Shown: piece after piece, positions 710 through 59,247 of the stretch
Layout of the letters: each line of letters starts with the position of its first letter
Numbering within the stretch: the stretch's first letter is position 1
Assembly (NCBI GenBank): GCA_964431965.1
Contig: CAYSLU010000013.1
Coordinates: 899-64,898, forward strand
Source: an uncultured Verrucomicrobiota bacterium
GTDB lineage: Bacteria > Verrucomicrobiota > Kiritimatiellia > CAIKKV01 > CAYSLU01
Direction of reading: 5' to 3'
Length of the DNA stretch: 64,000 nucleotides
Made by a program: the position numbers and the translations under genes
Notes under the pieces: model-generated
The model's input: only the letters and a program-made list of their open reading frames with translations
Databases searched by the model: none
What the model was told of the DNA's origin: nothing

Positions 710-887
710 AGGCACATCTCGCTTTCTGACCTCCGCCCTTTCTCTGTCGGGCGAAGCGGGCACACATTAGCCCAGCGGCTCGGGGCGGATCAAACCATTA
801 GGTGGTTGACGCCGCGCGGCGGCTTCGTGTTCTATGGCGCCTGTCCGGTTCGGCAGGAAGCGGCCGGCGAGAGAAGGGGATCGACGC

Positions 888-11682: not shown

Positions 11683-11685
11683 GGC

Positions 11686-12879: not shown

Positions 12880-12924
12880 GATCGCCTCCGTTGTCCGGCC
12901 CCTTCGGGCGTTCCCCCTCGCGCC

Positions 12925-14214: not shown

Positions 14215-14217
14215 GCT

Positions 14218-16215: not shown

Positions 16216-16288
16216 CGTCTCGCCACTCCGCTTTACGCTCGAACGCTGTGAGCGGCGACATGGTACATGCGTTTTCCCGGGGGTTCAC

Positions 16289-26817: not shown

Positions 26818-26818
26818 C

Positions 26819-30140: not shown

Positions 30141-30182
30141 GTCGCTCCTCGCCCCGCTGTTTCGCCGGGCTGCCCTTCCGCT

Positions 30183-30869
30183 CTACTCCACAATCGTCCG
30201 CAGCCTCTCGACGCGATGCTTTCGCAGGAACTCCTTCAGAAACTGAACCGCGACGGGGGTGTCCTGGATCTCGTAGTACTCCTCCCCGGTCTCCAGCTGC
30301 CTCCACATCTTGGCCGTCAAGGACTGGGCGAAGTCGACGTTCTCCGGGTCGAGTCCCTTCGCGATCTCGACCTCGTCGATCGGCTTCCCGTCCCGGAACC
30401 CGTTCTCGCGCCGCAGCCAGAGATTCTGCACGGCAATCTCTGCGGGGAAGTCGCGCGCGGCGATCTCGGCTAGCACGCCGTGGTCCTGCCGAAAGTATCG
30501 GAACCGGATCCGCGATTCATCCGACTCGCGGTCGAAGACGACGAGGTGGAGCAGGTTGCTGTGTGCCCGGAGGCAGATCGGCACTCCGGGGCCAACCCAG
30601 AGGACCTGCCGTCCCTGCCAGGGGATGGAGAGGTACGTGGTGTCGTGCTGAAAGAACTCCGCTTTCGGCGTGCTGAGGAGGTGGACCGCTCCGAACGACT
30701 TGTACTTCAAGCCCCAGCGCTCGGCGTGCTCCCGGTAGTCGATGAACCTGCCCGGCTCAACTTCCGCCCTTCCCCTGATGTCGACCGCCTCGCGCACGAG
30801 CCGGTTCTCCACGCCGCGGCAGACGGACGGCAGCAGCAGGAGAAAGAGCAACGGGAGTCTCGGGCTCAT
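30183..30869 (-). CDS. secreted hypothetical protein
   Basis: The signal peptide is MSPRLPLLFLLLLPSVCRG. Length is 228 aa. No motif was recognised. Confidence 0.55.
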   Translation of the reverse strand: MSPRLPLLFLLLLPSVCRGVENRLVREAVDIRGRAEVEPGRFIDYREHAERWGLKYKSFGAVHLLSTPKAEFFQHDTTYLSIPWQGRQVLWVGPGVPICLRAHSNLLHLVVFDRESDESRIRFRYFRQDHGVLAEIAARDFPAEIAVQNLWLRRENGFRDGKPIDEVEIAKGLDPENVDFAQSLTAKMWRQLETGEEYYEIQDTPVAVQFLKEFLRKHRVERLRTIVE

Positions 30870-31034
30870 ATCACTTCCTTCCTTCCGAATGCACCGGCCG
30901 GATTCCCGGGCTTGGGGTCGCCGGACAGCGAGAGCACAGGCGACGGCATTCCGATGTGTCTGCGGACACTAGATCGGCGGTTGGAGGAGATCAACGGGAA
31001 AGTCCGATCTGGAGCGGCTCGGAAGCCATCTGAG

Positions 31035-33620: not shown

Positions 33621-35552
33621 TCAACGGGCCGCGCCGTCTGTCAGCCGGTACACCCAGAGGTCCACCTCCGGGAACTGAAGTGCCGGCGCGGCCATGCGGA
33701 GAAAGCCGGGCGAGTCGGAGGGTGCGGGCAGCACCAGGTATCGCACGCCCAGCGCGCGCCACACGTCGGATGTCGGGCTGATCGTGACCGCATAGGCGTC
33801 GAACGCCGTGAGCGCGAACCGGGCTTGCGCGGTTTCGCCCGTGGCGAGCGCCATGTGGCCGTAGCGATTGTAGACGGCGGCGCCGTCGCCGCTCGGATCC
33901 AGGACGCGCATCAGCTCCGGGTCCGGCACCACGCGCGTTCCATTGAGGACCGTGGCGCCCGCCGCCTTCAGGTAGTTGGCGAACAGGTAGTTGCCGTAGA
34001 CGGCCCAGCGGGCGCCGGGCTCGGCGGCGGCCAGGCGGCTCGCCTCCCGGTGCAGGCGGGTCTGGGCGATGGGGGCGAGGCCGCGGGCCAGCGGGTTGAC
34101 GAGGGCGTGGGCGATAAGCGTGGGCGCCACGACGCAGGCGGCCAGGACCGCGATCCGGCCCGACCAGATGGCGTAGCCCGCGCCGCCGGCGGCGAGCGTC
34201 ACGAGTGCGATCCGGCCGCCGGACAGGAGTTCGGGGGCCGACGGCCGGAGGGCGATGCCGACGGCCAGGGCCATCGCGGCCAGCGCGACGCCGGCGGCGA
34301 TGGCCGGCGCATGGGCCCGGCGGCCGGTGCGCCCGGCGGCGCAGACCGTACACCACAGCACGCTGGCCACGCCGAGGCCGAGCATGGCCCGGGCGGAGGG
34401 GACCAGCGCCAGGCCGGTGATCCGGGCGAGCGGGGCGGGCCAGCCGAACACGATCCACGCGAACAGGGCGATGGTGTAGAGCGCGAGGGCCATCTCGATG
34501 GGGCGGACTGGCCGCCGGCGCACAGCGTCCCAGGCCAGTGCGGCGAGGGGGAGGGGAAAGAGGAGGACAAAGCGGCTGGCCTCGCAGACATTCGGATAGG
34601 GACGGGGATGGGCCCCTTCGGACATCCAGACATCGAACAGCCCGCCGAACGCCTGTGCGAGCGTGCTGTCGCCGCCGGCCGCTACGCGGGCGCCGGGGTA
34701 GACGGTGGCGTGGACGAGGGCCAGCGGCTCGGATGCCTGCAGGAAGTAGGACGCCGAAAGCGCCAGCCCGGCGGCGACCGCGGCGGCGGCCGGCAGCCAG
34801 GTCCACCGGCGGGTGCCGCGGGGAATCCGGGCGGCCACGAGGACGACGCACAGCCAGGCCAGCGGGATCTGGAACGGAGGGTAGCAGCTCATCGTGAAGT
34901 TGAGCGCCGCCGCCGCTGCGAGCGCGGCGGCCGCGACGGATCGGGCGGGGCGGCCGGCCGTCAGGGACCCGATGAGGCCGGCGGTCATCAGGGCCCAGGA
35001 GCCGAGCATCTCGGGCAGAGCCGAGGGGGAGGAGAACCACCACTGGACAAACGCCGACCCTGAGATCCAGGCGGCGCCGACGGCTGCGGCGCCGGGGCGG
35101 CCGGTCAGGACGAGCAGCAGGGCGAAGCAGCCGCCGGCGAGGAGGATGGCCTTCATCAGCCAGTAGAACGCGAAGGCCCGCTCCGCGTCCAAGGCAAAGA
35201 ATCCCCAGAACTGCGGGCGGAAGACGGCGCTCCAGTGACGGATCGGCACGTTCATCAGCATCGTGGTCCGGCCGGGGCCCCAGGCGGGATTGACGAGCGG
35301 ACAGGAGGGGCTCCGGTTCAGCTGGCTGAGGATGGCCGGCGTCACGACCGACCACTCGTCGATGCGGATGAATCGCGGCGTGCCAGCGACGACTCCGTCG
35401 TCCGGCGTCCGGCCCGGGAAGCCGGAGTTCCAGATACCGATCGAGGACCCGTGAAGCCGCGCCAGCGTGCCGGCCGCGAGGAGGGCCAGCGCGACGAATC
35501 CGGCGGCGGCAAGCGTCCGGTGGATCGGCGCGGCGGAGTGGACGGTCGACAC
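33621..35552 (-). CDS. large polytopic membrane protein of unknown function
   Basis: The GTG at 35552 has GGGAGG 7 nt upstream. The protein has at least 12 predicted TM helices and is 644 aa long. It is tightly linked to the aldolase upstream and the GDPD downstream. Confidence 0.6.
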   Translation of the reverse strand: MSTVHSAAPIHRTLAAAGFVALALLAAGTLARLHGSSIGIWNSGFPGRTPDDGVVAGTPRFIRIDEWSVVTPAILSQLNRSPSCPLVNPAWGPGRTTMLMNVPIRHWSAVFRPQFWGFFALDAERAFAFYWLMKAILLAGGCFALLLVLTGRPGAAAVGAAWISGSAFVQWWFSSPSALPEMLGSWALMTAGLIGSLTAGRPARSVAAAALAAAAALNFTMSCYPPFQIPLAWLCVVLVAARIPRGTRRWTWLPAAAAVAAGLALSASYFLQASEPLALVHATVYPGARVAAGGDSTLAQAFGGLFDVWMSEGAHPRPYPNVCEASRFVLLFPLPLAALAWDAVRRRPVRPIEMALALYTIALFAWIVFGWPAPLARITGLALVPSARAMLGLGVASVLWCTVCAAGRTGRRAHAPAIAAGVALAAMALAVGIALRPSAPELLSGGRIALVTLAAGGAGYAIWSGRIAVLAACVVAPTLIAHALVNPLARGLAPIAQTRLHREASRLAAAEPGARWAVYGNYLFANYLKAAGATVLNGTRVVPDPELMRVLDPSGDGAAVYNRYGHMALATGETAQARFALTAFDAYAVTISPTSDVWRALGVRYLVLPAPSDSPGFLRMAAPALQFPEVDLWVYRLTDGAAR

Positions 35553-35569
35553 GGCTGACCTCCCGCTAT

Positions 35570-36223
35570 TCAGACCGCCTTGCCGGTGTTCTCGGCCCGC
35601 AGGGACATGAGGTGGGCGGCGTCTGACTTGGAGAGCGGCTGAAGCCGGTCGCCCGTGTCGAGGATGATCCGGCACGCGAGTTCAAAGAAGGCGGCGCGCT
35701 GGAGGGCCTCCTCGTAGTCCTGTCCCACCGTGACCTGCCCGTGGTTTCGCATGACGACGAGGTTGTGGTGGATCACGGAGGCGATCACCGCCTCGGAGAG
35801 GGTGGCCGAGCCGGGGAGGTAGAAGGGCACCGTCCCGACGGGGCCGACATAGTAGGGGATCTCGGGGATGACAAAGTAGTTCGGCGGATCGCCGGCGCGG
35901 CAGGCCAAGGCCGTGGCGCAGGGCGAGTGGAAGTGGAGCACGACGTTCACTTCCGGCCGCTTGCGCATCGCGCCGGAGTGGAAGCCGGCTTCCATGGATG
36001 GGCGGACCGCGCCGAGGGGGGTGGCGTCGGCGATCCGGCAGACGGCGACCTGCTCCGGCGTGATGGTGCCGAGCCAGCTCTGCGTGGCCGAGACGAGCAT
36101 GCGGTCGCCATCGATCCGGAGCGACATGTTGCCGCTGCTGCAGCGGGTGAGCCCGTACTGGTCCACGCGGTGGCACGCCGCCACGAATGCATCGATCACG
36201 CCCGGCGAAACGGCATCGCTCAT
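35570..36223 (-). CDS. class II aldolase/adducin-family protein
   Basis: It has metal-binding His clusters (VVLHFHSP and VIHHNLVVMRNHGQVTVG). AGGGAGGG lies 6 nt upstream of the ATG at 36223 (MSDAVSPG). Confidence 0.8.
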   Translation of the reverse strand: MSDAVSPGVIDAFVAACHRVDQYGLTRCSSGNMSLRIDGDRMLVSATQSWLGTITPEQVAVCRIADATPLGAVRPSMEAGFHSGAMRKRPEVNVVLHFHSPCATALACRAGDPPNYFVIPEIPYYVGPVGTVPFYLPGSATLSEAVIASVIHHNLVVMRNHGQVTVGQDYEEALQRAAFFELACRIILDTGDRLQPLSKSDAAHLMSLRAENTGKAV

Positions 36224-36242: not shown

Positions 36243-37457
36243 TCATGGGGTCTCCGGTCTGCGGGACGGGGCATCGACCAGCTGGTCCAGCGGCGTGCCG
36301 TCGGCGGGCACGGCCTGGCGCCAGAAGTCCGCGCTGGCTTTCATTCGCGCGAGTATGTCATCCGGAGCGTCCGCCGTTCCGCTGAACGCCTCGATGGTCA
36401 GGAAGATATCCGCGCAGCGGGGCGGCATCAGCGGATCGGGCGGCCGCTCGTACGATGCCTTCAGGGCGCGCAGCACCCGGTGCGGGTCAATGATCCCGGC
36501 GGCGTTGTGCTCGGCGGTGAACGGCTTGTGGGCGGAGGATGTGCCATCTGTCTGCTGCAGGTGCACGATGGGCGAGTAGCAGCCCAGCCGGTCGAGCCAC
36601 TGATACGGATCACCGTCCTCGTGCGAGGCGAACAGGTGCGGATGCTCCGCGGCATCGGCCAGCACGTCGGCGACCGCGCGGTCCTGCCCGGCTGCGCCCG
36701 CGCCGGCCGCGGCGCGCAGCGCCGCCCGGGCGCGCTCGGATCCAGCCCATGGCATCCGGGCCGGCGGCGAGCCCGGCGCGCCGGCTCGCAGCCAGGCCGT
36801 CAGCGCCTCTCCGGTCGGCCGCAGGAATCGGCGCTGTCCGTACTGGTGCCCGACGTCGATGGTGACGTAGAGGGGGCAGCCGCGGCGGCGCAGGACGCCG
36901 GCGAGCATCGCGTGCGTGCCCGCGAGGGTCCATGGCGGCTGATGGGGCGAGTACATCTGCTCCACCCCCACGGTGGTGGCGCCCGCTTCGGCGCCATAGG
37001 CGGCGGCCTGCGCGAGCCGGTCGTACAGGTCCTGCTCCGCTTCCTCGAAGCGGGCCCGATCGTTCAGAACCGACTGCGGGAAGGCGTGGGCGAAGAAGCC
37101 CAGGCCCGCGTGGAGCCGACCGGCGGCCTCTGCCATGGGCTTGATCCACTGCGTCAGCAGGTGATCGCGCACCCGCCGGTCAGTGTGGGCCAGGCCGAGC
37201 GTCGCATAGGTTCCGTGCCCGGAGTAGAGGCTGACTACACGAGCGCCGGTCCGGGCCTGGGCCTCCTGGACGGCGGCGATCCAGTCGTGGCGATAGGCGG
37301 CCGGCGCGTACAGGGGATCGCACTCATTGTCCGCGCTGGCCTCGATGCAGGACAGGCCCAGTTCGTCGCGCACGATCCGGAACCACTCGTCGGGGGTCGT
37401 CCAGCGCTTTGAGGCAAAGCAGTTGTCGACGGACAGATGGATGCGCGGGTAGTTCAC
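36243..37457 (-). CDS. sugar phosphate isomerase/epimerase (xylose-isomerase-like TIM barrel)
   Basis: Composition and length (404 aa) fit the AP-endonuclease-2/xylose-isomerase-like TIM barrel family. It is the first gene of a minus-strand four-gene cluster. Confidence 0.65.
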   Translation of the reverse strand: MNYPRIHLSVDNCFASKRWTTPDEWFRIVRDELGLSCIEASADNECDPLYAPAAYRHDWIAAVQEAQARTGARVVSLYSGHGTYATLGLAHTDRRVRDHLLTQWIKPMAEAAGRLHAGLGFFAHAFPQSVLNDRARFEEAEQDLYDRLAQAAAYGAEAGATTVGVEQMYSPHQPPWTLAGTHAMLAGVLRRRGCPLYVTIDVGHQYGQRRFLRPTGEALTAWLRAGAPGSPPARMPWAGSERARAALRAAAGAGAAGQDRAVADVLADAAEHPHLFASHEDGDPYQWLDRLGCYSPIVHLQQTDGTSSAHKPFTAEHNAAGIIDPHRVLRALKASYERPPDPLMPPRCADIFLTIEAFSGTADAPDDILARMKASADFWRQAVPADGTPLDQLVDAPSRRPETP

Positions 37458-37680
37458 GCGGCATCGTCCGTCGTCGAGCTTCTTTCGCGTGAGCGATCAG
37501 TCAGCATGGCATCCGTGCACAGGCCGGTGGTTGAGACATCGGGCTAAAGTAGACTGCACGAACGGGTTTGGCAAGGACTGGAGAACTGGGGTCGTGCACG
37601 TCTCTCTGGACATTCGGCCGCACGGCTGGCTAGAGTGCGAGCGTGCAGCCGGAACGGAAACTGCGAAGACGGAGGATATC

Positions 37681-39765
37681 ATGAGCACATGGTGGAGGGT
37701 GGTGGCCATTGCGATGGCGGCGCTGATGGGCGTGGCTCCGTCAGCCGGGGCGGCCGGCGGCTTGCCGGGCGACGCCGAGGCGGCCACGCACGGCGACGAG
37801 GCGGCCACTCTTCAAGTGGTCAAGGAGACCGTCGAGAGCCAGCCGGACTTCGTGTTCCGGCAGTACAATCTGGCCGTGCTCTCGCACTATTCGTATCTGA
37901 TCGGCAGCGGCGGCGAGGCGATTGTGGTCGACCCGGCGCGGGATATCAGCCGGTACCTCAAGGACGCCGCGGAGCTGAAGCTGAAGATCAAGTACGTCTA
38001 CCTCACGCACTCGCACGCCGACTTCGTCGCCGGCCACATGGAGCTGCGCAAGGCCACCGGCGCGGAGGTGGTGATGAATGAGGACGCGGGCGCGCTCTTC
38101 CCGCACCGGCGCGTGCGCGAGGGCGACGAGATCCGGGTCGGCTCGGTGCGCGGGATCGTGATGGCGACGCCGGGCCACACGCCCGACGGCACGTGCCTGT
38201 GCGTGTTCCGGCCCGCGGATGCGCCGGCGCCGGCGTTCGTCTGCACGGGGGATACGCTGTTCATCGGCAGCGTCGGACGCCCCGACCTGATGGGCGAGGG
38301 CATGAGCGCGGCCACGCTGGCGCGCCAGGCGTTCCGGTCGTGGACCGACAAGCTGGCGAAGCTGCCCGATGCGACGCGGATCTTCCCGGCGCACGGCGCG
38401 GGGTCGCTGTGCGGCGCGCACCTGAGCGACAAGCCCGTGTCGACGATCGGCGAGCAGCGGCGGGAGAACCCGTACCTGCAGCACGCCGGCGTCAACTCGT
38501 TCGTGATGGCCATGATCGACGGCCTGCCGGCCGCGCCCCAGTACTTCGCCCACAACGCGAAGATGAATCACGACGGTCCTCCGCTCGTGGACTGGTCGGA
38601 GAGCCTGCCTCGCCCGCTCAAGCCGACGGTGGTCTCGGAACTGCCCGACATGGGCGCTTGGATTATCGACCTCCGGGACTCGGTGGCCTTCGCCGCCGGC
38701 CATCCGAAGGATGCGATCAACATCGGCATTCGCGGGCGCTTCGAGACGTGGACCGGCATGATGATCCCGTGGGGCGAGCCGATCGTGCTGGCCGGGTCCG
38801 ACGATGAGGTCAAGGAGGCGAGGTTCCGGCTGCACCGGATCGGGTACGACCGGCTGGCGGGCTACCTCGAGGGCGGAGTGGACGCGTGGAAGAAGGAGAA
38901 GCTGCGGATGCCGACGCTGACTCTGCTCCAGCCGGCGGATCTGTACGCACGCATGCGGGCCGGGACAGCCCCGGTGATCGTGGACGTACGCCTGCCGACC
39001 GAGTGGATGGGCCTGCGGATCGGCGATGTGCTGAACATTCCCGTCAACCGGCTGTTCATCGACGGCCGTCGGCTGGACTCCTCGATGCCTGTTCTGACGG
39101 TGTGCAACTCGGCTTATCGGTCGAGCATGGGGGCCTCGGTGCTGCAGAAGATGGGCTTCACGAACCTGTTCAACCTGGCAGGCGGCAGCGAGGCCTGGAT
39201 CGCCGCCGGGCTTCCGACTCTGAGCGCTCCGGCTGCTGGCGGGCCTGCGGCCCCGGCGGGCGCGGCCGCTTCCGGGAGCCGCGTCAATCTGCCGGAAGGA
39301 GTTGGCGCCCCGGATCTGGCGCAGCGGCTGATGGATCTGCCGGGAACGGTCGAGATCGTGGACATCCGGCCGGCTTGGCAGTTCGCCGAGTTCAGCATCC
39401 CGGGGTCCGCCAATGTGTCCGTCGAGCAACTGCTGCTGTCGCCGGTATCGCCCGCACCGGCTGACGCGCGACCGCTGGTCATCGTATCGCGCGACGGCTA
39501 TGTGGCCGCCGCCGCGGGCGGCGTGCTGAGCCAGAGAAGCGGGCGCTCGATCCGGTACCTGGTGGGAGGGGCTCAGCAGTACTACGATCAGGTGATGCGC
39601 CCCGCCGGCATCATGAGCGAGAAGTCGCCCCTGCCGGCCGTCTCCCCGCCGCCGGCGGCCCCGAAGCCCGGCGCCCCTGCTGCGGCGCCCCCGCCCGCGG
39701 CGCCCCCGTCGCCACCGGCTGCATCACCGCCGGTGGCTGCACCGAAGAAAAGCGCGGGCTGCTGA
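37681..39765 (+). CDS. secreted CstB-like persulfide dioxygenase (ETHE1-type MBL domain) fused to rhodanese domains, with a Pro/Ala-rich C-terminal tail
   Basis: The ATG at 37681 has GGAGG 6 nt upstream. A signal peptide is present (MSTWWRVVAIAMAALMGVAPSAGAAGG). The MBL motifs are YLTHSHADFVAGH and GDTLFIGSVGRPDL. Three rhodanese-like modules follow, and only the middle one has an active-site Cys (TVCNSAYRS). The C-terminus is PPAAPKPGAPAAAPPPAAPPSPPAASPPVAAPKKSAGC. Confidence 0.75.
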   Translation: MSTWWRVVAIAMAALMGVAPSAGAAGGLPGDAEAATHGDEAATLQVVKETVESQPDFVFRQYNLAVLSHYSYLIGSGGEAIVVDPARDISRYLKDAAELKLKIKYVYLTHSHADFVAGHMELRKATGAEVVMNEDAGALFPHRRVREGDEIRVGSVRGIVMATPGHTPDGTCLCVFRPADAPAPAFVCTGDTLFIGSVGRPDLMGEGMSAATLARQAFRSWTDKLAKLPDATRIFPAHGAGSLCGAHLSDKPVSTIGEQRRENPYLQHAGVNSFVMAMIDGLPAAPQYFAHNAKMNHDGPPLVDWSESLPRPLKPTVVSELPDMGAWIIDLRDSVAFAAGHPKDAINIGIRGRFETWTGMMIPWGEPIVLAGSDDEVKEARFRLHRIGYDRLAGYLEGGVDAWKKEKLRMPTLTLLQPADLYARMRAGTAPVIVDVRLPTEWMGLRIGDVLNIPVNRLFIDGRRLDSSMPVLTVCNSAYRSSMGASVLQKMGFTNLFNLAGGSEAWIAAGLPTLSAPAAGGPAAPAGAAASGSRVNLPEGVGAPDLAQRLMDLPGTVEIVDIRPAWQFAEFSIPGSANVSVEQLLLSPVSPAPADARPLVIVSRDGYVAAAAGGVLSQRSGRSIRYLVGGAQQYYDQVMRPAGIMSEKSPLPAVSPPPAAPKPGAPAAAPPPAAPPSPPAASPPVAAPKKSAGC

Positions 39766-39778
39766 GGAGGGAAATCTC

Positions 39779-40306
39779 ATGGCTTCCGATAATCGACATG
39801 TGCCGTACTGGTCGCCCTACGCGGCCGGTTTTGGCTTGGGCGTGACGCTGTTGCTGTCGTTCTGGCTGCTGGGCGCCGGGCTGGGGGCGTCGGGCGGCCT
39901 GGCGCGGATGGCCGCATGGGCTCAGCACCTGGTCGCTCCGGCGCGCGTGGAGGCATCGGCCTATTTCGGGCCGTGGTTCGCGGCAGGCGCGCCGCACGTG
40001 CTGGCCTATTACCTGGTATTCATGGCCGTCGGCGTGTTCGTCGGGGGGCTCCTCTCGGCGATCGGGTCGGGGCGCGTCCGCCCGATGGTGGAGCGCGGGC
40101 CGCGCGTGACGCCGGGCGTCCGCCTGGCGCTGGCGCTGGCGGGCGGGGTGATCGTGGGGTTCGCCAGCCGGCTGGCTCGGGGCTGCACCTCGGGGCAGGC
40201 CCTTACGGGAACCGCGATGCTCCTGACGGGAAGCGTGATCTTCCTGGTCTGCATCTTTATCGGCGCCTACCTGACGGCATTCTTTGTGCGGAGGGAATGG
40301 CTGTGA
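39779..40306 (+). CDS. YeeE/YedE-family (Sulf_transp, TsuA-like) sulfur-compound transporter, first half
   Basis: The protein is 175 aa with four TM helices and the conserved LARGCTSGQ cysteine motif. Its last 10 nt overlap the start of the next gene. Confidence 0.8.
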   Translation: MASDNRHVPYWSPYAAGFGLGVTLLLSFWLLGAGLGASGGLARMAAWAQHLVAPARVEASAYFGPWFAAGAPHVLAYYLVFMAVGVFVGGLLSAIGSGRVRPMVERGPRVTPGVRLALALAGGVIVGFASRLARGCTSGQALTGTAMLLTGSVIFLVCIFIGAYLTAFFVRREWL

Positions 40307-42339
40307 GCGGAACCCTTTACTCCCTCGACATGCTGAACACGCCGGTCGGATTCGCCATGGCCGGCCTGATCGGAATCCTGTTCGGCCTGTTCCTCGAGCA
40401 GGCCGGCTTCGGCAGCAGCCGGCGCCTCACGGGCATTTTCTACTTCCGGGACATGGCCGTGCTGAAGGTGATGTTCACGGCGGTGGTGACGGCCATGGTG
40501 GGCTACCCGTATCTGTCGGCGTTCGGCTGGGTGAAGCCGGGACAGCTCTATCTGCTGGACACGTACTGGGGCGCCCAGATCGTGGGCGGGCTCATCTTTG
40601 GCGTCGGCTTTGTGATGGGCGGCTGGTGCCCGGGCACCGCCTTTGTGGGGCTGGCCAGCGCCAAGTGGGATGCCTTGGTGTTCCTGGCTGGCGCCGTGGG
40701 CGGCTCCGTCCTGTTCAGCGAGGTGTATCCGGCGGTCGAGCGGCTGTACAACGGCCAGTGCGCCGGGCCGCTCTTCCTGGCCGACTCGCTTGGCGTCTCG
40801 ACGCCGGCTGTCGTGTTGGGCATGTGCATCGCGGCCGTGCTGGCGTTTGCGGGCGCGACATGGCTGGAGAGCCGGTTCGGCGAGCGTCCCCGGCCCGAGG
40901 CGGGGGAGCGGCTGCGGAACCGGCTGGCTGCGCTGGCGCTGATGGCGCTGGCGGCCGGCACGTTCGCGCTTCCGGCGCCCAGAGCGGCCGGCGGGGGAGA
41001 GGCGACGGCTACCGCGGCGCCGGCCCGCGGGGCGGCAGATGCCGGCCTTCTGGCTGCGGTGGACCGGGGCGAGGATCACGTGGAGCCGCTGGATCTGGCC
41101 GCGCGCATGATGGCCGGGGAGCCCGGCCTGACCGTGGTGGACATCCGGTCGCCTGAAGCGTTCTCCTCGTTTCACCTGCGCGGGGCGGTGAGCATCCCTC
41201 TCGACCGGCTGATGGCCGAGGCGGCGGGGCGGGTGCCGAGGACGGGCACGGTCGTCCTCTACTCAAACGGCACGACGCACGCGGCGCAGGCCTGGATGGC
41301 CCTGCGCCAGGCGGGGTGGACGAACGTGCTCGTGCTGACCGACGGGATTCTCGCGTTCTGGCGCGAGTGCCTGACGCCGCCCTCGCTCGCCGACGTCACC
41401 GACGAGCGGTCGGCGCGCGCGCAGTCCGCGGCATTCGCTGCTCGACGGGCGTGGTTTCTCGCCCCTGCAGCGCCGGCCAAGCCGGCGCCCCAGCCGCCGC
41501 CTCCTCCCGCGCTGGCAGAGCCCGGCCTCGCAGCCCGCGTGGTGTCCACGGACTGGCTGGCCTCCGAGCTCGACGATCCGCGGATCCGCATCGTCGACGC
41601 GCGGGCCAAGAGCACGGCGTATACGACGGCGCACCTTCCCGGCGCCGTGTACCTGGGATACGACGGGGTGCGCGGGACCGTGGAAGGCAGCCCCACGATG
41701 GTGCTTCCGGCCGCCGAGCTGGCCGGAGTCTTCGGTCGGCTGGGGATCGCCACGGGCCACACCGTGATCGTGTACAGCGACACGATTCGCGACGCGACGC
41801 TGGTCGGCATGGCGCTCGCGCGGGTGGGGCATCGCTCGTTCGCGATTCTTCACGGCGGGTACGACAAGTGGGTGGCCGAGAAGCGGCCGGTGACGTCGGC
41901 CATCCCGGTGGTTGCGGCGGCGCGCTACGAGCCGACTCCGGGAGCGGATGCCTTCACGGCTTCGACGGAGGACGTCGCGGCCGCGATGCGGGACGGCCGA
42001 ACGGCGATTCTCGATGTGCGTCCGGCGGAGTTCTTCACCGGGAAGAAGACCGACGAGGCGCGAGCGGGGCACATTCCCGGCGCCGTGAACCGCGAGTTCA
42101 AGATGGACCTGCTTCCGGAGAAGGAGCTGTGGCTGTCGGCGGATCTGATCCGCGCCGCCTACGAGAAGCTGGGCATCCGCGAGGATACGCCCGTGATCGT
42201 GCACTGCCGGACCGGGCACCAGGCGAGCCAGACGTATTTCACCCTGAAGCACCTGCTGGGACTGAAGGACGTCCGCTGGTACGACGGCTCCTGGGCCGTG
42301 TGGGCCGCGCGCCCCGACCTGCCGGTCGCGGGCCCCTGA
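40297..42339 (+). CDS. YeeE/YedE second half fused to three rhodanese domains (a single domain plus a tandem thiosulfate-sulfurtransferase-like pair)
   Basis: The ATG is at 40297 (MAVSGTLY...). The membrane half carries the GGWCPG cysteine motif. Rhodanese 1 has no Cys. Rhodaneses 2 and 3 form a TST-like tandem with the catalytic loop VHCRTGHQAS. The 807-aa track ORF starts earlier in noise. Confidence 0.75.
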   Translation: MAVSGTLYSLDMLNTPVGFAMAGLIGILFGLFLEQAGFGSSRRLTGIFYFRDMAVLKVMFTAVVTAMVGYPYLSAFGWVKPGQLYLLDTYWGAQIVGGLIFGVGFVMGGWCPGTAFVGLASAKWDALVFLAGAVGGSVLFSEVYPAVERLYNGQCAGPLFLADSLGVSTPAVVLGMCIAAVLAFAGATWLESRFGERPRPEAGERLRNRLAALALMALAAGTFALPAPRAAGGGEATATAAPARGAADAGLLAAVDRGEDHVEPLDLAARMMAGEPGLTVVDIRSPEAFSSFHLRGAVSIPLDRLMAEAAGRVPRTGTVVLYSNGTTHAAQAWMALRQAGWTNVLVLTDGILAFWRECLTPPSLADVTDERSARAQSAAFAARRAWFLAPAAPAKPAPQPPPPPALAEPGLAARVVSTDWLASELDDPRIRIVDARAKSTAYTTAHLPGAVYLGYDGVRGTVEGSPTMVLPAAELAGVFGRLGIATGHTVIVYSDTIRDATLVGMALARVGHRSFAILHGGYDKWVAEKRPVTSAIPVVAAARYEPTPGADAFTASTEDVAAAMRDGRTAILDVRPAEFFTGKKTDEARAGHIPGAVNREFKMDLLPEKELWLSADLIRAAYEKLGIREDTPVIVHCRTGHQASQTYFTLKHLLGLKDVRWYDGSWAVWAARPDLPVAGP

Positions 42340-53129: not shown

Positions 53130-53924
53130 ATGACCGCACCCGGACTTCGCGAGCTGGCGATCGGGCCCGAGGAATCTCCCTGGGCGCCGGCAGGACTGCA
53201 GCGCATCGACTACACGAGCGGGCTGGACGGCCGGAGGGACTGGGCCTTGGCCTGGCCGGGCCGGGATCCCGCGCGGTGGGTGGTTCACCTTCATGGGCAC
53301 GGGTCGACGGGCGACCAGCTGCACACGCGCCCGGACATCAACCGCCTCTGGCTTCCGAAGTACCGCGCGGCCGGGCTCGGCGTGCTGTCGCCCAATCTGC
53401 GGGGGAATGCCTGGATGGCGCCAGCCGCGGCCCACGACCTGCACGCGCTACTGGAGGCCGTGCGCCGCGAGTTCGGGGCGCGACGGTTCCTGCTCTTCAG
53501 CGGGTCGATGGGCGGGACCGGAAACCTGGCCTACGCGGTGTTGCACCCCGATGACGCGCAGGCCGTGGGGGCGCTGTGCCCGGCCGTGGACGTTGCCTCT
53601 TACTACGCCTGGTGCCGCGAGCGGAACACGGGCGTGATCCGCGAGATCGCGGACGCCATCTGCGAGTCCTACGGCGGCGACCCAGTCGCGCGCCCGGACG
53701 TCTACGCGGCGCACTCGGCGCTGCGACGGTGCGACCGGCTGACCATGCCCGTGGTCGTGGTACACGGCTCAGCCGACGCCGTGATCCCGGTGGAGCCCGC
53801 GCGCGAGCTGGCCCGCCGGATGTCGGGCCGCGCGACGTTCCGGTACGAGGAGCAGCCGGGCGGCCACCACGACTCGCCCCTGGAAGCCGCCTGGGCGATC
53901 GACTGGGCCATCGCCCAGCTGTGA
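53130..53924 (+). CDS. alpha/beta-hydrolase (esterase/S9 peptidase-like)
   Basis: The nucleophile elbow is FSGSMGG, and a C-terminal HGSADAVIP...GGHH acid/His arrangement is present. Length is 264 aa. Confidence 0.75.
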   Translation: MTAPGLRELAIGPEESPWAPAGLQRIDYTSGLDGRRDWALAWPGRDPARWVVHLHGHGSTGDQLHTRPDINRLWLPKYRAAGLGVLSPNLRGNAWMAPAAAHDLHALLEAVRREFGARRFLLFSGSMGGTGNLAYAVLHPDDAQAVGALCPAVDVASYYAWCRERNTGVIREIADAICESYGGDPVARPDVYAAHSALRRCDRLTMPVVVVHGSADAVIPVEPARELARRMSGRATFRYEEQPGGHHDSPLEAAWAIDWAIAQL

Positions 53925-54113: not shown

Positions 54114-55070
54114 ATGCCGCCGTTGTCCGCCTACATCCGATGGCAGCCGCCGATGGTGCGGGTTCTGCAGGCGAGCATCCCGCTCGCGGCGGGGGCCGTG
54201 TACTTTTTCGGCTGGCGGGTTCTGATGCTGCTCGTCGTGGTGAACGCCGTCGCGTACGTGTCGGAGTACCTGTTCACACGCCAGTGGAAGGAGCCGGTCA
54301 CCTCAGCCGTCTTCGTCACGGCCACGCTGTTCACGTTCTCGCTGCCGCCGACCATTCCGGTCTGGATGGCCGTTGTGGGGATCGTGTTTGCGGTGGTGTT
54401 CGGCAAGATGGTGTTCGGGGGATTCGGGCGGAACGTGTTCAACCCGGCGCTGACGGGGCGGGCGTTCCTGTACATCAGCTTCGGGCTGCAGATGACCGCG
54501 ATGTGGTCCGAGCCCGTCGGCGGGACGATCGGCGGGTTCGGCGCGTGGGCGTCGGACGCGATCACAAGCGCCACGCCCGGCATGCGCCTCAAGCAGGGCG
54601 AGCTGTTCGACCTGTGGCCGCTCTTCGTCGGGACGGCCTCCGGCACGATCGGGGGGAGCAGCGCGCTGCTGGCGCTGCTGGGCGGGATCTACCTGCTGTG
54701 GACGAAGACGGCCAACTACCGGATCGTCGCGTCGTGCTTCGCGGGCTTCCTTCTGCCGCAGGCGGCGCTGTGGCTGGCGAAGGTTCCGGCCGCGGCCGAT
54801 CCGCTGCATGCCGTGCTGGCCGGCAGCTTCGTCGTCGGCGCGTTCTTCTATGCCACCGACCCGGTGTCGGCCTCGCAGACCAAGCCGGGCCAGTGGATGT
54901 ACGGGGCCTTCATCGGGCTGATGTCGTGCCTGATCACGATCTACTCGGTGTGGCCGGCAGGGACGATGTTCGCGGTCCTGCTCGCGAACATGTTCGCGCC
55001 GATCACGGACTACACGATCCGGCTGCGGCAGGCGAAGGCGAAGGCGGGGACCGCGGCCAAGCCGGCTTGA
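54114..55070 (+). CDS. nqrB: NqrB/RnfD-family membrane subunit with an FMN-threonine motif
   Basis: GGAGGG lies 5 nt upstream of the ATG at 54114. FGGFGRNVFNPA and DAITSATPG (FMN attachment) are the family signatures. At 318 aa it is short for NqrB. Confidence 0.75.
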   Translation: MPPLSAYIRWQPPMVRVLQASIPLAAGAVYFFGWRVLMLLVVVNAVAYVSEYLFTRQWKEPVTSAVFVTATLFTFSLPPTIPVWMAVVGIVFAVVFGKMVFGGFGRNVFNPALTGRAFLYISFGLQMTAMWSEPVGGTIGGFGAWASDAITSATPGMRLKQGELFDLWPLFVGTASGTIGGSSALLALLGGIYLLWTKTANYRIVASCFAGFLLPQAALWLAKVPAAADPLHAVLAGSFVVGAFFYATDPVSASQTKPGQWMYGAFIGLMSCLITIYSVWPAGTMFAVLLANMFAPITDYTIRLRQAKAKAGTAAKPA

Positions 55071-55090
55071 GCGGCGGCGGGCGGGGTGAC

Positions 55091-55708
55091 ATGGCGGATC
55101 GATCCATAGCGCGGGAGCGGGCCTACACCCTGGGGTTCATGACGCTGGTGACGCTGGTCATCACCGGCCTGATCGCCGGGCTGCAGCTGCTGACGGCCGA
55201 GCAGGTCGAGCGGAATGAGAAGCTGTTCCTGAAGCGGGCCGTGATGGCGGCGGCCGGGGTTCAGCCTCCCGCCGATGCGGCGGGGATCGAGCGGTGGTAC
55301 GAGGCGCACGCGCGCCCGCTGGACGCGGCGAATCCCCGGGAGCCGGCGTTCGCGGTGGTGGACGAGGCGACGGGCGCGACGCAGGGGTATGTGTTCGTGC
55401 GCAGCGGCGCGGGGCTGTGGGGGACAATCCGGGCCGCGGCCGGCCTGGACGCCGCGCTCGAGCGGTTCACGGGCGTGACCTTCACCGAGCAGCAGGAGAC
55501 GCCGGGGCTCGGGGCGCGCATCGACGAGGCGTGGTACAAGGAGCAGTTCCGGGGTCGGCAGGCTCCGCTCACGCTGCGGCCCGAGGGCACCCGCTCCCGG
55601 GCGGCGGGCGAGGTGGACGCGATTACGGGCGCGACGATCACGAGCCGGGCGGTACAGGGCATTCTGAATCGGACCCGGGCCGGGGCGGCGGCCGCGCTCG
55701 GCCGCTGA
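55091..55708 (+). CDS. nqrC: NqrC/RnfG-family FMN-binding subunit
   Basis: It has a single N-terminal TM helix and the DAITGATITS FMN-attachment motif. Confidence 0.8.
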   Translation: MADRSIARERAYTLGFMTLVTLVITGLIAGLQLLTAEQVERNEKLFLKRAVMAAAGVQPPADAAGIERWYEAHARPLDAANPREPAFAVVDEATGATQGYVFVRSGAGLWGTIRAAAGLDAALERFTGVTFTEQQETPGLGARIDEAWYKEQFRGRQAPLTLRPEGTRSRAAGEVDAITGATITSRAVQGILNRTRAGAAAALGR

Positions 55709-55729
55709 GGCCGGCGCGGGGAGGGCGAC

Positions 55730-56362
55730 ATGGCACAATCCAAGGTGCGGCGGGTATTCCTCGACAACATGGGGGCGAACAACCCGGTCTTTGTTCAGAT
55801 CCTGGGGATCTGCTCGACGCTGGCCGTGACGAACGTGGTCCTGAACACGATCGTCATGTGCGTGGGGCTCATCTACACGACGGCGCTGTCGAATCTGACG
55901 GTGTCCGCGCTGCGGCGCTGGATCCCGTCGCGCATCCGCATGATGGTCGAGGTGCTGATCATCGCCGCGTACGTGATCGTCGTGGACCTCGTGCTTCGCG
56001 CCTTCTACCCGGACATCTCGCGCCAGCTCGGGCCGTACGTGGGGCTGATCATCACCAACTGCATCGTGATGGGGCGAACCGAGGCGTTTGCGCTGAGCAA
56101 TCCGCCCTTCCTGTCCTTTGTGGACGGGCTGTCGGCGGGGCTTGGCTATTCGTACATCCTGCTGCTGATCTCGGTGCTGCGGGAGCTGCTGGGCTCCGGG
56201 ACGATCCTGGGGTTCCGCGTGATGGCGGCGGGGTGGGTGAACTGGTCGATCATGGTCATGGCGCCGGGCGCGTTCTTTATGCTGGCAGTGCTGATCTGGA
56301 TCATCCGCGTGTACTGGCTGAAACCGAAGGCGGCCGCCGGCGGGCAGCCGGCCGGCGCGTGA
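55730..56362 (+). CDS. nqrD: NqrD/RnfE-family membrane subunit
   Basis: NNPVFVQILGICSTLAVT is a typical NqrD/RnfE N-terminus. The protein is 210 aa with six TM helices. Confidence 0.85.
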   Translation: MAQSKVRRVFLDNMGANNPVFVQILGICSTLAVTNVVLNTIVMCVGLIYTTALSNLTVSALRRWIPSRIRMMVEVLIIAAYVIVVDLVLRAFYPDISRQLGPYVGLIITNCIVMGRTEAFALSNPPFLSFVDGLSAGLGYSYILLLISVLRELLGSGTILGFRVMAAGWVNWSIMVMAPGAFFMLAVLIWIIRVYWLKPKAAAGGQPAGA

Positions 56363-56372
56363 GAGGGCGGCG

Positions 56373-56972
56373 ATGAGCGAGTTTGCAGGGTGTCTGACCA
56401 TCTTTTTCGCGGCGATCTTCACGGGCAACATCCTGCTCACGAACTACCTGGGGATGTGCTCGTTCCTCGCTGTGTCGCGGGAGGTGAAGACCTCCGTGGG
56501 GCTGGGGGCCGCCGTGGTGCTGGTGATGACCGCGACGAACGTCCTGAACTGGCTCGTCTACACCTACGTGCTGGTCCCGCTGCATCTGGACTACCTGCGG
56601 TTCATCGTGTTCATCGTGGTGATCGCCGGGTTCGTGCAGGTGGTGGAGATGATCATCGAGCGCGTGTCGGACGCCTTGTACGCCGCGCTGGGGATCTTCC
56701 TGCCGCTCATCACGGTCAACTGCGCCGTGCTGGGCGCGGCGCTGTTCATGATCATCCGCGAGTACACGCTGGCCGAGTCGTTCGCCTACGGGCTGGGCGG
56801 CGGGATCGGGTGGGCGGTGGCGATCATCGCGATGGCGGGCATCCGGCAGAAGCTGGCCGCCGCCCGGATTCCGAAGGGCCTGGAGGGGGCGGGCATTGCC
56901 CTCATCATCGCGGGCATCATGTCGCTGGCCTTCGTCGGCTTCAACGGCATGCTGAGTGGGGGTGGCCAGTGA
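56373..56972 (+). CDS. nqrE: NqrE/RnfA-family membrane subunit
   Basis: NILLTNYLGMCSFLAVS is a typical NqrE/RnfA N-terminus. Length is 199 aa. Confidence 0.85.
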   Translation: MSEFAGCLTIFFAAIFTGNILLTNYLGMCSFLAVSREVKTSVGLGAAVVLVMTATNVLNWLVYTYVLVPLHLDYLRFIVFIVVIAGFVQVVEMIIERVSDALYAALGIFLPLITVNCAVLGAALFMIIREYTLAESFAYGLGGGIGWAVAIIAMAGIRQKLAAARIPKGLEGAGIALIIAGIMSLAFVGFNGMLSGGGQ

Positions 56973-56991
56973 GCCGCGGGGGGGCGTGCGC

Positions 56992-58092
56992 ATGCTGACG
57001 GCCCTGTTGATCGCGGTGGGCGCGATGTGCGCCATCACGGCGGGGCTGACCGTCGCGATCCTGATCGCCGAGGCGACCGTCGGCAACTACGGCGAGATCC
57101 GCCTGACGGTCAACGGCAAGCGGGACCTGACCGTGACGGGCGGCCGGCCCCTGCTCGGGGCGCTCCGGGATCACGGGATCTTCATCCCCTCGGCCTGCGG
57201 CGGGCGCGGCTCGTGCGGGCTGTGCAAGCTGAGCATCCCGGACGGAGGCGAGCCGGTCGCGACGGAGCTGCCGTGGCTGAGCAAGGACGAGGTGGCCCGG
57301 AAGGTCCGCCTATGCTGTCAGGTCAAGGTGAAGCGCCCGCTGCGCATTGAGATTCCCGAGGAGCTGCTCAGCGTCCGCCAGTACCGCACCGTCGTCACCG
57401 AGATCCGCGACCTCACGCACGACATCAAGGAAGTCCGGCTCCGCCTGGAGGACCCCCCGGAGATGGAGTTCGTCCCCGGCCAGTTCGTCCAGTTCGAGGT
57501 GCCGCCCTATGACCTGACTGACGAGCCGGTCTATCGCGCCTACTCCATCTCGTCGGACGCCCGGAACCGCGGCGAGATCGAGCTTCAGGTCCGGTATGTG
57601 CCGAACGGGATCTGCACGACCTACGTGCACCAGCACCTGAGGGTGGGCATGCCGGCGGTCATCAACGGCCCGTACGGCGACTTCCGCCTGCAGGACACGC
57701 AGCGCGAGATCGTCTTCGTGGCCGGCGGGTCGGGCATGGCGCCGATCCGGAGCATGCTGCTGCACATGGCGGCCACGCGCAACCCGCGGAAGGCCCGCTA
57801 CTACTACGGGGTCCGCTCGCGCCGCGACCTGTATCTGGTGGACGAGATGCGGGAGCTGGAGCGGACGATCCCGGACTTCCGGTTCATCCCCACGCTGAGC
57901 CGCAGCCAGCCGGAGGACCAGTGGAACGGCGAGAAGGGGCGGGTCACGGTCATCGTGGATCGCGAGGTGCCCGCCGGCGCGGATGCGGAGGCCTACCTGT
58001 GCGGCAGCCCCCTGATGATCGATGCCTGCGTGGAGATCCTGAAGGCCAAGGGGCTGCCCGGAAGCCGGATCTTCTTCGACAAGTTCGCGTGA
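56992..58092 (+). CDS. nqrF: NqrF-type subunit: TM anchor, 2Fe-2S ferredoxin and an FAD/NADH-binding FNR-like domain
   Basis: MLTALLIAVGAMCAI is the TM anchor. The ferredoxin cysteines are CGGRGSCGLCK...CCQ. RAYSISS is the FAD motif, and VAGGSGMAP is the NAD motif. The track ORF starts at 56956, overlapping nqrE. Confidence 0.85.
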   Translation: MLTALLIAVGAMCAITAGLTVAILIAEATVGNYGEIRLTVNGKRDLTVTGGRPLLGALRDHGIFIPSACGGRGSCGLCKLSIPDGGEPVATELPWLSKDEVARKVRLCCQVKVKRPLRIEIPEELLSVRQYRTVVTEIRDLTHDIKEVRLRLEDPPEMEFVPGQFVQFEVPPYDLTDEPVYRAYSISSDARNRGEIELQVRYVPNGICTTYVHQHLRVGMPAVINGPYGDFRLQDTQREIVFVAGGSGMAPIRSMLLHMAATRNPRKARYYYGVRSRRDLYLVDEMRELERTIPDFRFIPTLSRSQPEDQWNGEKGRVTVIVDREVPAGADAEAYLCGSPLMIDACVEILKAKGLPGSRIFFDKFA

Positions 58093-58114: not shown

Positions 58115-58594
58115 GTGAAGCAGAGCCCGGTCTATGATCGCATCGAGGCCGCCATGCGGCCTGGCGCCATCACGCGCGACGGTTTCCTGGGGGCTGACAC
58201 CCGGCGGCTGTCCGAGATCCTGGATGCCGATGCGGGGGATGTGAAGCGCCTCGGGTTCTCGCACCAGGCGCTGGCCGCGCGGATGCGCGCTCTGCGCGAC
58301 GCGGCCGCCGCCGGGCTGGGCGAGCCGATCGAGGTGGGCGAGCACCTCGAGGTGCGGGTCGATGCCGCCCGCGGGCGCCTCCCGTGTCCGTTCGGCGACT
58401 GCGGGCTCCACGAGAAGACCTTCGTCGTAGCGCGGAACCGGCGCACCGGACGCGAGCTCACGTATTCCGACTTGAACATCCACCTCATCGAGCGCCACGG
58501 GTTCTACGAGGGGCTGGGCGCGGCGTTCCGGGTGGCGCCGGCCGACATCGTGGCCGTGCTGGAGCCCGAGCCGGATCCGCGGGAGGGAGCATGA
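58115..58594 (+). CDS. hypothetical protein (GTG start)
   Basis: The protein is 159 aa, and GGAGGTGG precedes the GTG at 58115. A CPFGDCGLHEK Cys pair is present. No family was recognised. Confidence 0.5.
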   Translation: MKQSPVYDRIEAAMRPGAITRDGFLGADTRRLSEILDADAGDVKRLGFSHQALAARMRALRDAAAAGLGEPIEVGEHLEVRVDAARGRLPCPFGDCGLHEKTFVVARNRRTGRELTYSDLNIHLIERHGFYEGLGAAFRVAPADIVAVLEPEPDPREGA

Positions 58595-59247
58595 GCGCGC
58601 CGCGCGCATCGGCGGGCGGATCGCGGTTTGACCGGATGGCGGCCGAGTGGGATTCGAACCCGGGGCGCGTGCGCGTCGCGGGAGCGGTGGCGGACGCCAT
58701 TCGCCGGCGGATTCCGCTCTCGGCCGGCATGCGCGTCCTCGACTACGGAAGCGGCACCGGCCTGCTGGCCTTGGCCCTGCTGCCGCAGGTCGGACCCGTG
58801 ACCGCGGTGGATCGGTCCGAGGGCATGCTGAAGGTGCTGGCCGGTAAGGTTCGCCTGGGCGGGATCGGGAACGTGGACGTCTGCTTCGGGGATGCCGAGG
58901 CCGGGCCTCTGGCCGAGCGAGGGTTCGACGCGGTCGTGAGCTCCATGACGCTCCATCACGTGCGGGATGCGCGGCGGGTCCTGCGTCGGCTGGCGGCGGT
59001 ACTCAAGCCCGGCGGGTGGCTCGCGGTGGCGGATCTGGACGCCGAGGACGGAACGTTTCACGACGATCCGGAGGGAATCCATCACTTCGGATTCGAGCGC
59101 CGGATCGTGCGGGAGTACCTGCGCGCCGCCGGCCTGGTACGCGTGACCGCCGTCACCGTGCACCGCATCGAGAAGCCCGGCTGCGACGGCCATCCCCGTG
59201 TCTACCCGGTGTTCCTCGCGGCCGGCCGCAAGCCGTCCCGGTTGTAG
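58591..59247 (+). CDS. class I SAM-dependent methyltransferase
   Basis: The ATG at 58591 overlaps the upstream stop (ATGA), and GGGAGGGAG lies upstream. VLDYGSGTG is motif I, and AVLKPGGWLAVADL is the post-II block. Confidence 0.75.
   Translation: MSAPRASAGGSRFDRMAAEWDSNPGRVRVAGAVADAIRRRIPLSAGMRVLDYGSGTGLLALALLPQVGPVTAVDRSEGMLKVLAGKVRLGGIGNVDVCFGDAEAGPLAERGFDAVVSSMTLHHVRDARRVLRRLAAVLKPGGWLAVADLDAEDGTFHDDPEGIHHFGFERRIVREYLRAAGLVRVTAVTVHRIEKPGCDGHPRVYPVFLAAGRKPSRL

Follow-up and report, generated by a model that had tools for sequence, protein, structure and literature searches.

How can an NqrBCDEF complex dispose of the electrons of NADH when the operon that encodes it has no nqrA? The question is raised by a 64,000-nucleotide stretch of contig CAYSLU010000013.1 (the window), from an uncultured Verrucomicrobiota bacterium of the class Kiritimatiellia, in which five genes for NqrB-, NqrC-, NqrD-, NqrE- and NqrF-type subunits (here B, C, D, E and F) follow one another at 54114-58092. 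Rnf and NQR are regarded as a single ancient family of redox pumps that has two functional forms. We find that the operon continues into a sixth gene, X, which a preliminary description of this DNA had missed, and that the order B-C-D-E-F-X is kept across related genomes. The identity of the complex, and the lack of NqrA throughout its family, can be stated with high confidence. On balance, we favor an NADH-driven, NqrA-less NQR-type complex that works with soluble X and whose acceptor side would involve X, possibly in oxidative-stress defence.

An NqrBCDEF operon with a sixth gene

The five genes lie on the forward strand with intergenic gaps of 10-22 bp, in a window of about 70% GC (Table 1). 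Their assignment in the preliminary description, together with the motifs quoted there, was borne out by Pfam and motif checks. B and C carry the flavinylation motifs DAITSATP and DAITGAT, respectively. The Fe-S cysteines are present at both sites in D (within GICS and TNCIV) and in E (within GMCS and VNCAV), and the 2Fe-2S motif of F reads SACGGRGSCGLCK...CCQV. F starts at ATG 56992, an in-frame GTG upstream at 56956 being judged less likely; its homologues measure 366-367 amino acids (aa).

B had been described as a protein of about 318 aa, near RnfD in size, and this length stands. Its ATG at 54114 has GGAGG 6 nt upstream, homologous open reading frames (ORFs) open at the same aligned residue (the one at locus L017 being directly preceded by a stop codon), and the GC content of third codon positions drops from 0.94 in B to 0.74 upstream of the ATG. 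The start is thus supported by the Shine-Dalgarno sequence, by the homologues and by base composition. A longer B beginning at 53940, considered earlier as an ATG that might carry an NqrA remnant, was rejected: the codon there is TTG, the extension is not conserved and no NqrA remnant is present. The gene immediately upstream encodes an alpha/beta hydrolase, as had been noted. X opens with GTG behind a GGAGGTG Shine-Dalgarno sequence, 22 bp 3' of the F stop codon.

Table 1. The operon and the genes on either side of it, with window coordinates (TM, transmembrane).
Feature	Coordinates	Strand	Remarks
Alpha/beta-hydrolase gene	53130-53924	+	directly upstream of B; Pfam
B subunit, 318 aa	54114-55070	+	PF03116 E=3e-82; RnfD-type architecture, NqrB-like core
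C subunit, 205 aa	55091-55708	+	FMN_bind PF04205 E=2e-16; N-terminal membrane anchor; RnfG size
D subunit, 210 aa	55730-56362	+	PF02508; NqrD-like
E subunit, 199 aa	56373-56972	+	PF02508; NqrE/RnfA-like
F subunit, 366 aa	56992-58092	+	Pfam Fer2 + FAD_binding_6 + NAD_binding_1; N-terminal TM helix
X, 159 aa, soluble, no TM segment	58115-58594	+	conserved directly 3' of F
Class I SAM-dependent methyltransferase	58591-59247	+	Pfam Methyltransf_11/25/31; weaker Ubie_methyltran match

Affinities of the subunits and their cofactor residues

The complex has a mixed set of characters: NqrF and NQR-like D and E are shared with NQR, and Rnf-like B and C are kept. B passes the NCBIfam rnfD model TIGR01946 (234 bits, cutoff 207), and its match to nqrB models begins only at model position ~114-120. 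Among PDB sequences, B scores 149 bits with Vibrio cholerae (Vc) NqrB, over the core only, from residue 133, and 129 bits with Clostridium tetanomorphum RnfD (7ZC6_D), over the full length. A multiple alignment with three NqrB and two RnfD sequences shows that B lacks the N-terminal segment of ~45 aa and the insertion after TM1 that characterize NqrB, as RnfD likewise does.

C scores 83.5 with the NCBIfam rnfG model and 77.2 with nqrC, both below cutoff; its best PDB match is Acetobacterium woodii RnfG at 54 bits, with NqrC at 32-45 bits. D reaches 239 bits with the NqrD model NF006777, just above the cutoff of 235 (rnfE 169-177), and 186 bits with Vc NqrD (RnfE 95-138). For E, the nqrE and rnfA models give 227.8 and 219.9, both just below cutoff, and the PDB gives 189 bits with Vc NqrE against 157-178 with RnfA, the A. 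woodii protein scoring 178. F obtains 266 bits with the nqrF model, below its cutoff of 295, and 208 bits with Vc NqrF, compared with at most 134 for soluble oxygenase and P450 reductases. D alone passes an Nqr equivalog cutoff; B, C, E and F fail.

Alignment to the V. cholerae complex places the four cysteines of D and E at NqrD C29/C112 and NqrE C26/C120, and all four cysteines of the F 2Fe-2S cluster are present. The riboflavin in Vc NqrB is held by T162, G198, N200, A205, F342 and D346 (PMC10643135); all six are kept in B, as is F160. Also conserved are the acidic ion-path residues of the B, D and E subunits, to which the preliminary description had drawn attention, namely the equivalents of NqrB E144, D346 and D397, NqrD D88 and D133, and NqrE E95. 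Judged from these residues, the complex has a complete predicted electron wire that begins at the NADH site in F and ends at the B riboflavin, with its ion-path residues intact.

The anatomy of B bears directly on the main rival to our reading, a menaquinone reductase that needs no NqrA. In such an NADH:(mena)quinone oxidoreductase, riboflavin would reduce quinone at the rim of B, NqrA would be dispensable and X would be an accessory factor for maturation, assembly or regulation. The retained riboflavin ligands and F160 equivalent favor this view, as does the V. cholerae structure, in which quinone sits on NqrB, 11.6 Å from riboflavin (PMC10643135). Quinone and 2-heptyl-4-hydroxyquinoline N-oxide, however, recruit the N-terminal amphipathic helices of NqrB into the high-affinity site (PMC10643135), and B keeps neither these helices nor the G140/G141 pair of NqrB. 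Because the N-terminal segment is missing, the canonical quinone pocket of NqrB would not be the exit for electrons, a reading that draws on context as well as on anatomy. The hosts (Thermotogae, Spirochaetes, Fusobacteria and Kiritimatiellia), moreover, are mostly strictly fermentative anaerobes, many of them thought to be quinone-less. We regard quinone reduction as unlikely, while taking it seriously in what follows.

Position between Rnf and NQR

To place the subunits, we built a neighbour-joining tree of D and E, in which the two paralogs root each other, from 67 sequences and 188 columns with Kimura distances and 100 bootstraps. NQR was represented by the canonical nqr operons of Parabacteroides, Prevotella, Ruegeria and Neisseria, and Rnf by the rnf/rsx operons of E. 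coli, Bacteroides, Acetoanaerobium and Fusobacterium together with the Methylococcus E subunit; PDB-derived fragments of Vibrio, C. tetanomorphum and A. woodii served as further references. The NqrA-less sequences are monophyletic (98% bootstrap for D, 97% for E), as are those of canonical NQR (92% and 91%). The two join to the exclusion of Rnf in 100% of replicates for D and 97% for E, while a grouping of the NqrA-less sequences with Rnf appears in 0% and 1%. The unrooted B tree also recovers three groups, each monophyletic (88/100/100%).

Within the reach of a neighbour-joining method and of a sampling without Chlamydiae, Planctomycetes and Chlorobi, these trees place the NqrA-less clade as the sister lineage of canonical NQR, not nested within it. 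The phylogeny of B and of D/E that had been proposed earlier thus puts the clade beside NQR on the evidence of D/E, but outside the canonical NQR clade. An early-diverging form and the loss of an A/C subunit fit the tree equally well. The preliminary description had suggested an Rnf-to-Nqr intermediate; the mixed characters and the Rnf-like B and C agree with this, but the clade is sister to NQR and is not a demonstrated ancestor of it. Its other suggestion, a reduced complex, retains some merit: an NQR-like ancestor that lost A would fit the tree equally well. The unit, however, is BCDEF plus X, and because X is conserved after F it is not a bare five-subunit remnant.

Absence of NqrA, RnfC and RnfB

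The absence of an NqrA-like ORF from the window, noted earlier from the letters alone, was confirmed by both Pfam and phmmer. Pfam searches of ~49 plausible ORFs across the 64 kb detected no NQRA, RnfC, RnfC_N, SLBB, RnfB or ApbE domain. Searches with phmmer gave no match for the NqrA proteins of Parabacteroides distasonis and Ruegeria pomeroyi or for E. coli RsxC and RsxB among the six-frame ORFs of at least 60 aa in the window, nor for ApbE and NqrM among its six-frame ORFs. As a positive control, the same NqrA queries find nqrA by tblastn in a canonical locus (L126). The same holds for other genomes, where none of NqrA, RnfC, RnfB, ApbE and NqrM was found at 89 related loci (searched to 10 kb) or at 25 metagenome loci (searched to 7 kb); the RsxC and RsxB queries matched only ferredoxin-like ORFs at related loci, two of them of ~75 aa.

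These results speak to the possibility, also raised in the preliminary description, of an ordinary six-subunit Na+-NQR with nqrA encoded elsewhere, or of a complex that borrows RnfC from a separate rnf operon. The search in the source metagenome-assembled genome (MAG) covers 64 kb of a 75.5-kb contig, which leaves some scope for it, and a separate rnf operon is reported in the genome papers on the NqrA-less hosts Thermotoga species, Pseudothermotoga lettingae and Clostridium ultunense. Yet NqrA is absent beside the operon in more than 100 loci, and according to their genome papers Pseudothermotoga thermarum, P. lettingae and C. ultunense have no NqrA gene at all (PMC4148951, PMC5924567). The missing NqrB-specific N-terminal extension of B and the monophyly of the clade outside canonical NQR point the same way. 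For the family as a whole, a distant nqrA or a borrowed RnfC is very improbable.

Distribution of the six-gene unit

We scanned one genome per GTDB species with a profile of X, which matched 310 genomes, and examined 80 loci. F lies directly upstream of X, on the same strand and with a gap of 6-170 bp, in 78 of these 80. At about 70 of them, wherever the contig reaches, all six genes stand in the order B-C-D-E-F-X, which spans at least six phyla; the hosts belong to Spirochaetota, Verrucomicrobiota/Kiritimatiellia, Lentisphaerae/Victivallales, Sumerlaeota, Mcinerneyibacteriota and Armatimonadia. Synteny in related genomes, an issue left by the preliminary description, is thus well kept. Starting from F instead, a metagenome scan found X downstream in all 20 loci in which F is at least 51% identical, and the contexts of F homologues in Lentisphaerae, Kiritimatiellia and Sumerlaeota show B (318-333 aa) followed by C-D-E-F-X between unrelated flanks. 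Clustering of the flanks across phyla revealed no conserved neighbour beyond the six genes and no apbE, nqrM, cytochrome bd or menaquinone gene.

The six genes also occur in cultured organisms, namely Ilyobacter polytropus DSM 2926, P. thermarum and Thermosipho melanesiensis. The P. thermarum cluster (L100; CP002351, Theth_1137-1141) has the same order and domains, with B, C, D, E and F of 291, 203, 201, 195 and 370 aa, and an X homologue stands directly 3' of F. Cultured hosts with complete or near-complete genomes make the acceptor directly testable. In Ilyobacter, the six products are named RnfD, FMN-binding protein, NqrD, Rnf-Nqr domain protein, 2Fe-2S protein and hypothetical protein by the Prokaryotic Genome Annotation Pipeline (PGAP), an inconsistent set. 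The Joint Genome Institute (JGI) label for F is NqrF, so pathway reconstructions will probably count the hosts as NQR-bearing.

Some loci depart from this arrangement. Two encode a soluble F without a TM helix followed by X, with no B-E (L064, 8892-10456; L075, 4612-6118). A third has TM-anchored F and X, with no B-E in the ~1 kb of upstream sequence present on the contig (L040, 1047-2725), and a fourth has X alone (L086, 6284-6775). Conversely, a subgroup with B-C-D-E-F lacks both NqrA and X (L117-L121 and L124; for example L119, 4228-8065). Its F is 45-47% identical, the genes 3' of F lie on the opposite strand (GGDEF, DHFR, ThyA), and its neighbours (GGDEF, DHFR, ThyA, P5CR) contain no pointer to an acceptor.

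For a quinone-reducing complex with X as accessory, the X-less subgroup is a point in favor, as is the sister relationship to NQR; X would then be the counterpart, in operon position, of NqrM or ApbE after nqrF. The soluble F plus X pairs, and the fusions of X to redox enzymes described below, are ill-suited to a pure assembly factor of a membrane complex.

Two irregular loci were noted along the way. In a Spirochaetales MAG (L005/L021, 6090-6999, on an 832-kb contig), B is split into two called ORFs of 192 and 67 aa, through a frameshift, a pseudogene or an assembly error. In a Victivallales MAG (L052, 5805-8864), E-F-X is present, but the search detected none of B, C and D; their expected place is taken by an ORF that encodes a polytopic membrane protein of 476 aa.

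The X protein

X has no match in Pfam, NCBIfam or the PDB sequences, whether the query is the protein itself or a profile built from 41 sequences. Its AlphaFold2 model reaches a predicted local distance difference test score of 93.3 and a predicted template modelling score of 0.88, and Foldseek finds nothing in the PDB with E<0.1. An origin of X as a remnant of NqrA, RnfC or RnfB was considered and rejected, with hhalign probabilities below 1% and no Foldseek match to those chains. The family is large: of 1.84 billion representatives, the X profile matches 1742 clusters (50% identity) at E<=1e-3, of which 778 reach E<=1e-10. Conserved family-wide are G23, F24, G26, D28, R30, D39, G87, C91, P92, K101, H123, H128, F130, G133, R139 and P142, position C91 being Cys in 88% and Ser in 9%.

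X might have no functional tie to the complex and simply share its transcript, as a small transcription factor or a stress protein could. Faint, sub-threshold matches to HTH_50 in 9 of 41 homologues (best E=0.005) would suit such a role, as would the locus with X alone and the X-less subgroup. The HTH_50 matches are not significant given 41 x 24,736 comparisons, however, and were dismissed as chance; Foldseek finds no winged-helix or helix-turn-helix match. That X follows F on the same strand, 6-170 bp away, at 78 of the 80 loci reached through X and at all 20 reached through F, in many phyla and between differing flanks, also argues against it, and we give an unrelated X little likelihood.

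Fusions provide additional insight. X is joined in frame to a rubrerythrin-like domain (P0270), to a nitroreductase (P0314) and to part of an AhpC/TSA domain (P0344), and it reads through into rubredoxin in P0318. That X is joined again and again to enzymes that reduce peroxide, oxygen or nitro compounds points to a role in the electron transfer or stress response of anaerobes that has yet to be described. As a separate observation, X also occurs as two to four tandem copies or inside proteins of 885-2506 aa without Pfam domains (P0336, which has tandem copies, P0241, P0254 and P0347).

Oxidative-stress genes around X

All flank ORFs of 82 non-redundant loci were clustered. The only recurrent neighbours, whose identities Pfam confirmed, are ferritin, rubrerythrin, a Fur/PerR-family regulator, desulfoferrodoxin, flavodiiron protein, nitroreductase and MutY. 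The first five types occur within 10 kb at about 21 of the 82 loci, and at 26 when nitroreductase and MutY are added; the random expectation of <10% for 16-20 kb of flank is a rough estimate and not a computed control, and the loci are phylogenetically non-independent. The loci concerned belong to Spirochaetota, Verrucomicrobiota/Kiritimatiellia and Lentisphaerae, often with the genes directly 3' of X. One of the soluble F plus X pairs (L075) adjoins ferritin and rubrerythrin.

Proposed electron path

By homology, the complex could work as follows. The flavin adenine dinucleotide of F would oxidize NADH, and the electrons would pass from the 2Fe-2S cluster of F to the intramembrane 2Fe-2S cluster held by D and E. 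From there they would reach the covalent flavin mononucleotide (FMN) on periplasmic C and move on to the one in B, likewise covalent, to end at the riboflavin of B near the cytoplasmic face. This NADH oxidation loop would probably be coupled to the export of Na+ (or H+).

On the cytoplasmic side, X may take or relay the electrons, either by docking on B where NqrA or RnfC would sit or by working with the ferredoxin domain of F. The second arrangement is suggested because soluble F plus X pairs occur. NADH could in this way be linked via X to the detoxification of peroxide, superoxide or O2 in anaerobes, a feed into oxidative-stress defence that is suggested by the fusions and neighbours of X. 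We propose only tentatively that X itself is the acceptor or relay with an oxidative-stress role, and this narrower claim may well not hold.

Several points weigh against a role of X on the acceptor side. The proposals on the acceptor and on ion coupling both stem from homology and context. No redox-cofactor motif can be recognised in X, and its conserved D28, R30, D39, C91, K101, H123, H128 and R139 would suit three things equally well: an enzyme active site, a pocket for a nucleotide or flavin, and a metal site. Since one subgroup lacks X, not every NqrA-less complex needs it. The enrichment of oxidative-stress genes lacks a matched background, many of the loci being phylogenetically related, and Pfam finds no such genes beside the operon among the ORFs of the window itself. 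Finally, the retained F160 would be compatible with quinone reduction at the rim of B.

A bolder version would add to Rnf and NQR a third functional kind of pump, a Na+-translocating NADH:X oxidoreductase. Novel-fold X would replace NqrA or RnfC at the cytoplasmic exit and feed scavengers of the rubredoxin, rubrerythrin, peroxiredoxin or superoxide reductase type, and the clade would represent the state after the gain of NqrF and before that of the quinone-binding N-terminus of NqrB. We consider this doubtful, less likely even than quinone reduction. If true, strict anaerobes would detoxify O2 and reactive oxygen species with NADH while conserving energy.

Comparison with known systems

The operon shares with canonical Na+-NQR the TM-anchored NqrF module, the four cysteines of D/E, the flavinylation motifs of C and B, the riboflavin ligands, the acidic ion-path residues and the B-C-D-E-F gene order. 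It differs in having neither NqrA nor apbE/nqrM, and in its extra conserved gene X. Canonical NqrB, of ~400 aa, bears an N-terminal amphipathic extension, whereas B has 318 aa and no extension; C is RnfG-sized, and F is ~40 aa shorter than NqrF. With Rnf (RnfCDGEAB, a ferredoxin:NAD+ oxidoreductase; C. tetanomorphum 7ZC6, A. woodii 9ERI) the operon has in common the four-subunit membrane core, a B that passes the rnfD cutoff and aligns with RnfD over its full length, and a C most similar to RnfG. Unlike Rnf, it has no RnfC (FMN, 2x[4Fe-4S], NAD+ site) and no RnfB (poly-ferredoxin, ferredoxin site), with NqrF instead, and just 0-1% of the bootstraps place its D/E with Rnf.

Among the closest known systems are also the Thermotogae-type NqrBCDEF clusters, which have the same order and likewise lack NqrA; that of P. 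thermarum belongs to the same family. The P. thermarum cluster without NqrA was reported in 2014, its acceptor being called unknown (PMC4148951), and further NqrA-less NqrBCDEF were noted in P. lettingae and C. ultunense (PMC5924567) and in Ca. Izimaplasma ZiA1 (PMC6256511). The five-gene layout is therefore already published, in genome papers of 2014 and 2018, and is uncharacterised: the literature searched yielded remarks in genome papers, and neither biochemistry nor transcriptomics on X or on the NqrA-less complex. These papers list the clusters as five genes with an unknown acceptor, the sixth gene being unmentioned in all three. A 2025 review of Rnf and NQR describes NqrA as without cofactor or assigned function and does not discuss the NqrA-less form.

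Partial NQR/RNF-like systems of Actinobacteria and the candidate phyla radiation (Meheust 2021, PMC8238504) are similar in being partial flavinylated Rnf/Nqr derivatives with an NAD-binding module. They have been proposed to transfer electrons in one direction, which suggests that the present complex could be a one-way exporter: NADH electrons would leave at the periplasmic FMN of C for an extracytosolic acceptor, like those of other systems flavinylated by ApbE, and B and X would lie off the main path. The lack of a cytoplasmic acceptor subunit of known type at the related loci would fit. The published systems, however, consist of an NqrB/RnfD domain fused to PF00175, the NAD-binding domain, without D/E, whereas here there are five separate, complete subunits. 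In addition, B keeps its flavinylation motif and every riboflavin ligand, which argues for a full return path, and no conserved periplasmic reductase gene lies beside the operon. One-way export is accordingly improbable, and the NqrA-less complex with an acceptor side involving X remains the reading we favor.

Three aspects appear to be undescribed: the breadth of the family (hundreds of species, at least seven phyla), its sister position to NQR, and the novel-fold partner X with its oxidative-stress links. A clade without NqrA or RnfC is a natural experiment on the role of the A/C subunit, on the origin of NQR from Rnf and on which other acceptors can be reduced.

Other features of the window

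The ATG of the methyltransferase gene downstream overlaps the stop codon of X (ATGA). The gene is probably co-transcribed and co-translated with the operon, in this genome only; it is absent among the conserved neighbour clusters at the other X loci.

Elsewhere in the window, four ORFs with good coding statistics have no Pfam match (810-1985, forward strand; 25393-27297, 28740-30182 and 30183-30968, reverse strand), and one at 33621-35681 on the reverse strand is composed of DUF7657 and DUF7654. A large sulfur-handling protein at 37453-39765 (forward strand) combines a metallo-beta-lactamase fold with three rhodanese domains, and the adjoining gene at 39793-42339, on the same strand, fuses a Sulf_transp (YeeE/YedE-like) membrane domain to rhodaneses. 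Lastly, a 1417-aa ORF at 7432-11685 on the reverse strand unites Glycogen_syn, DUF3417 and alpha-glucan Phosphorylase domains, an unusual synthase-phosphorylase fusion. It heads a glycogen cluster that continues on the same strand at 11686-16284 with GH57, a GT4 glycosyltransferase and a debranching enzyme (GDE_N/GDE_C).

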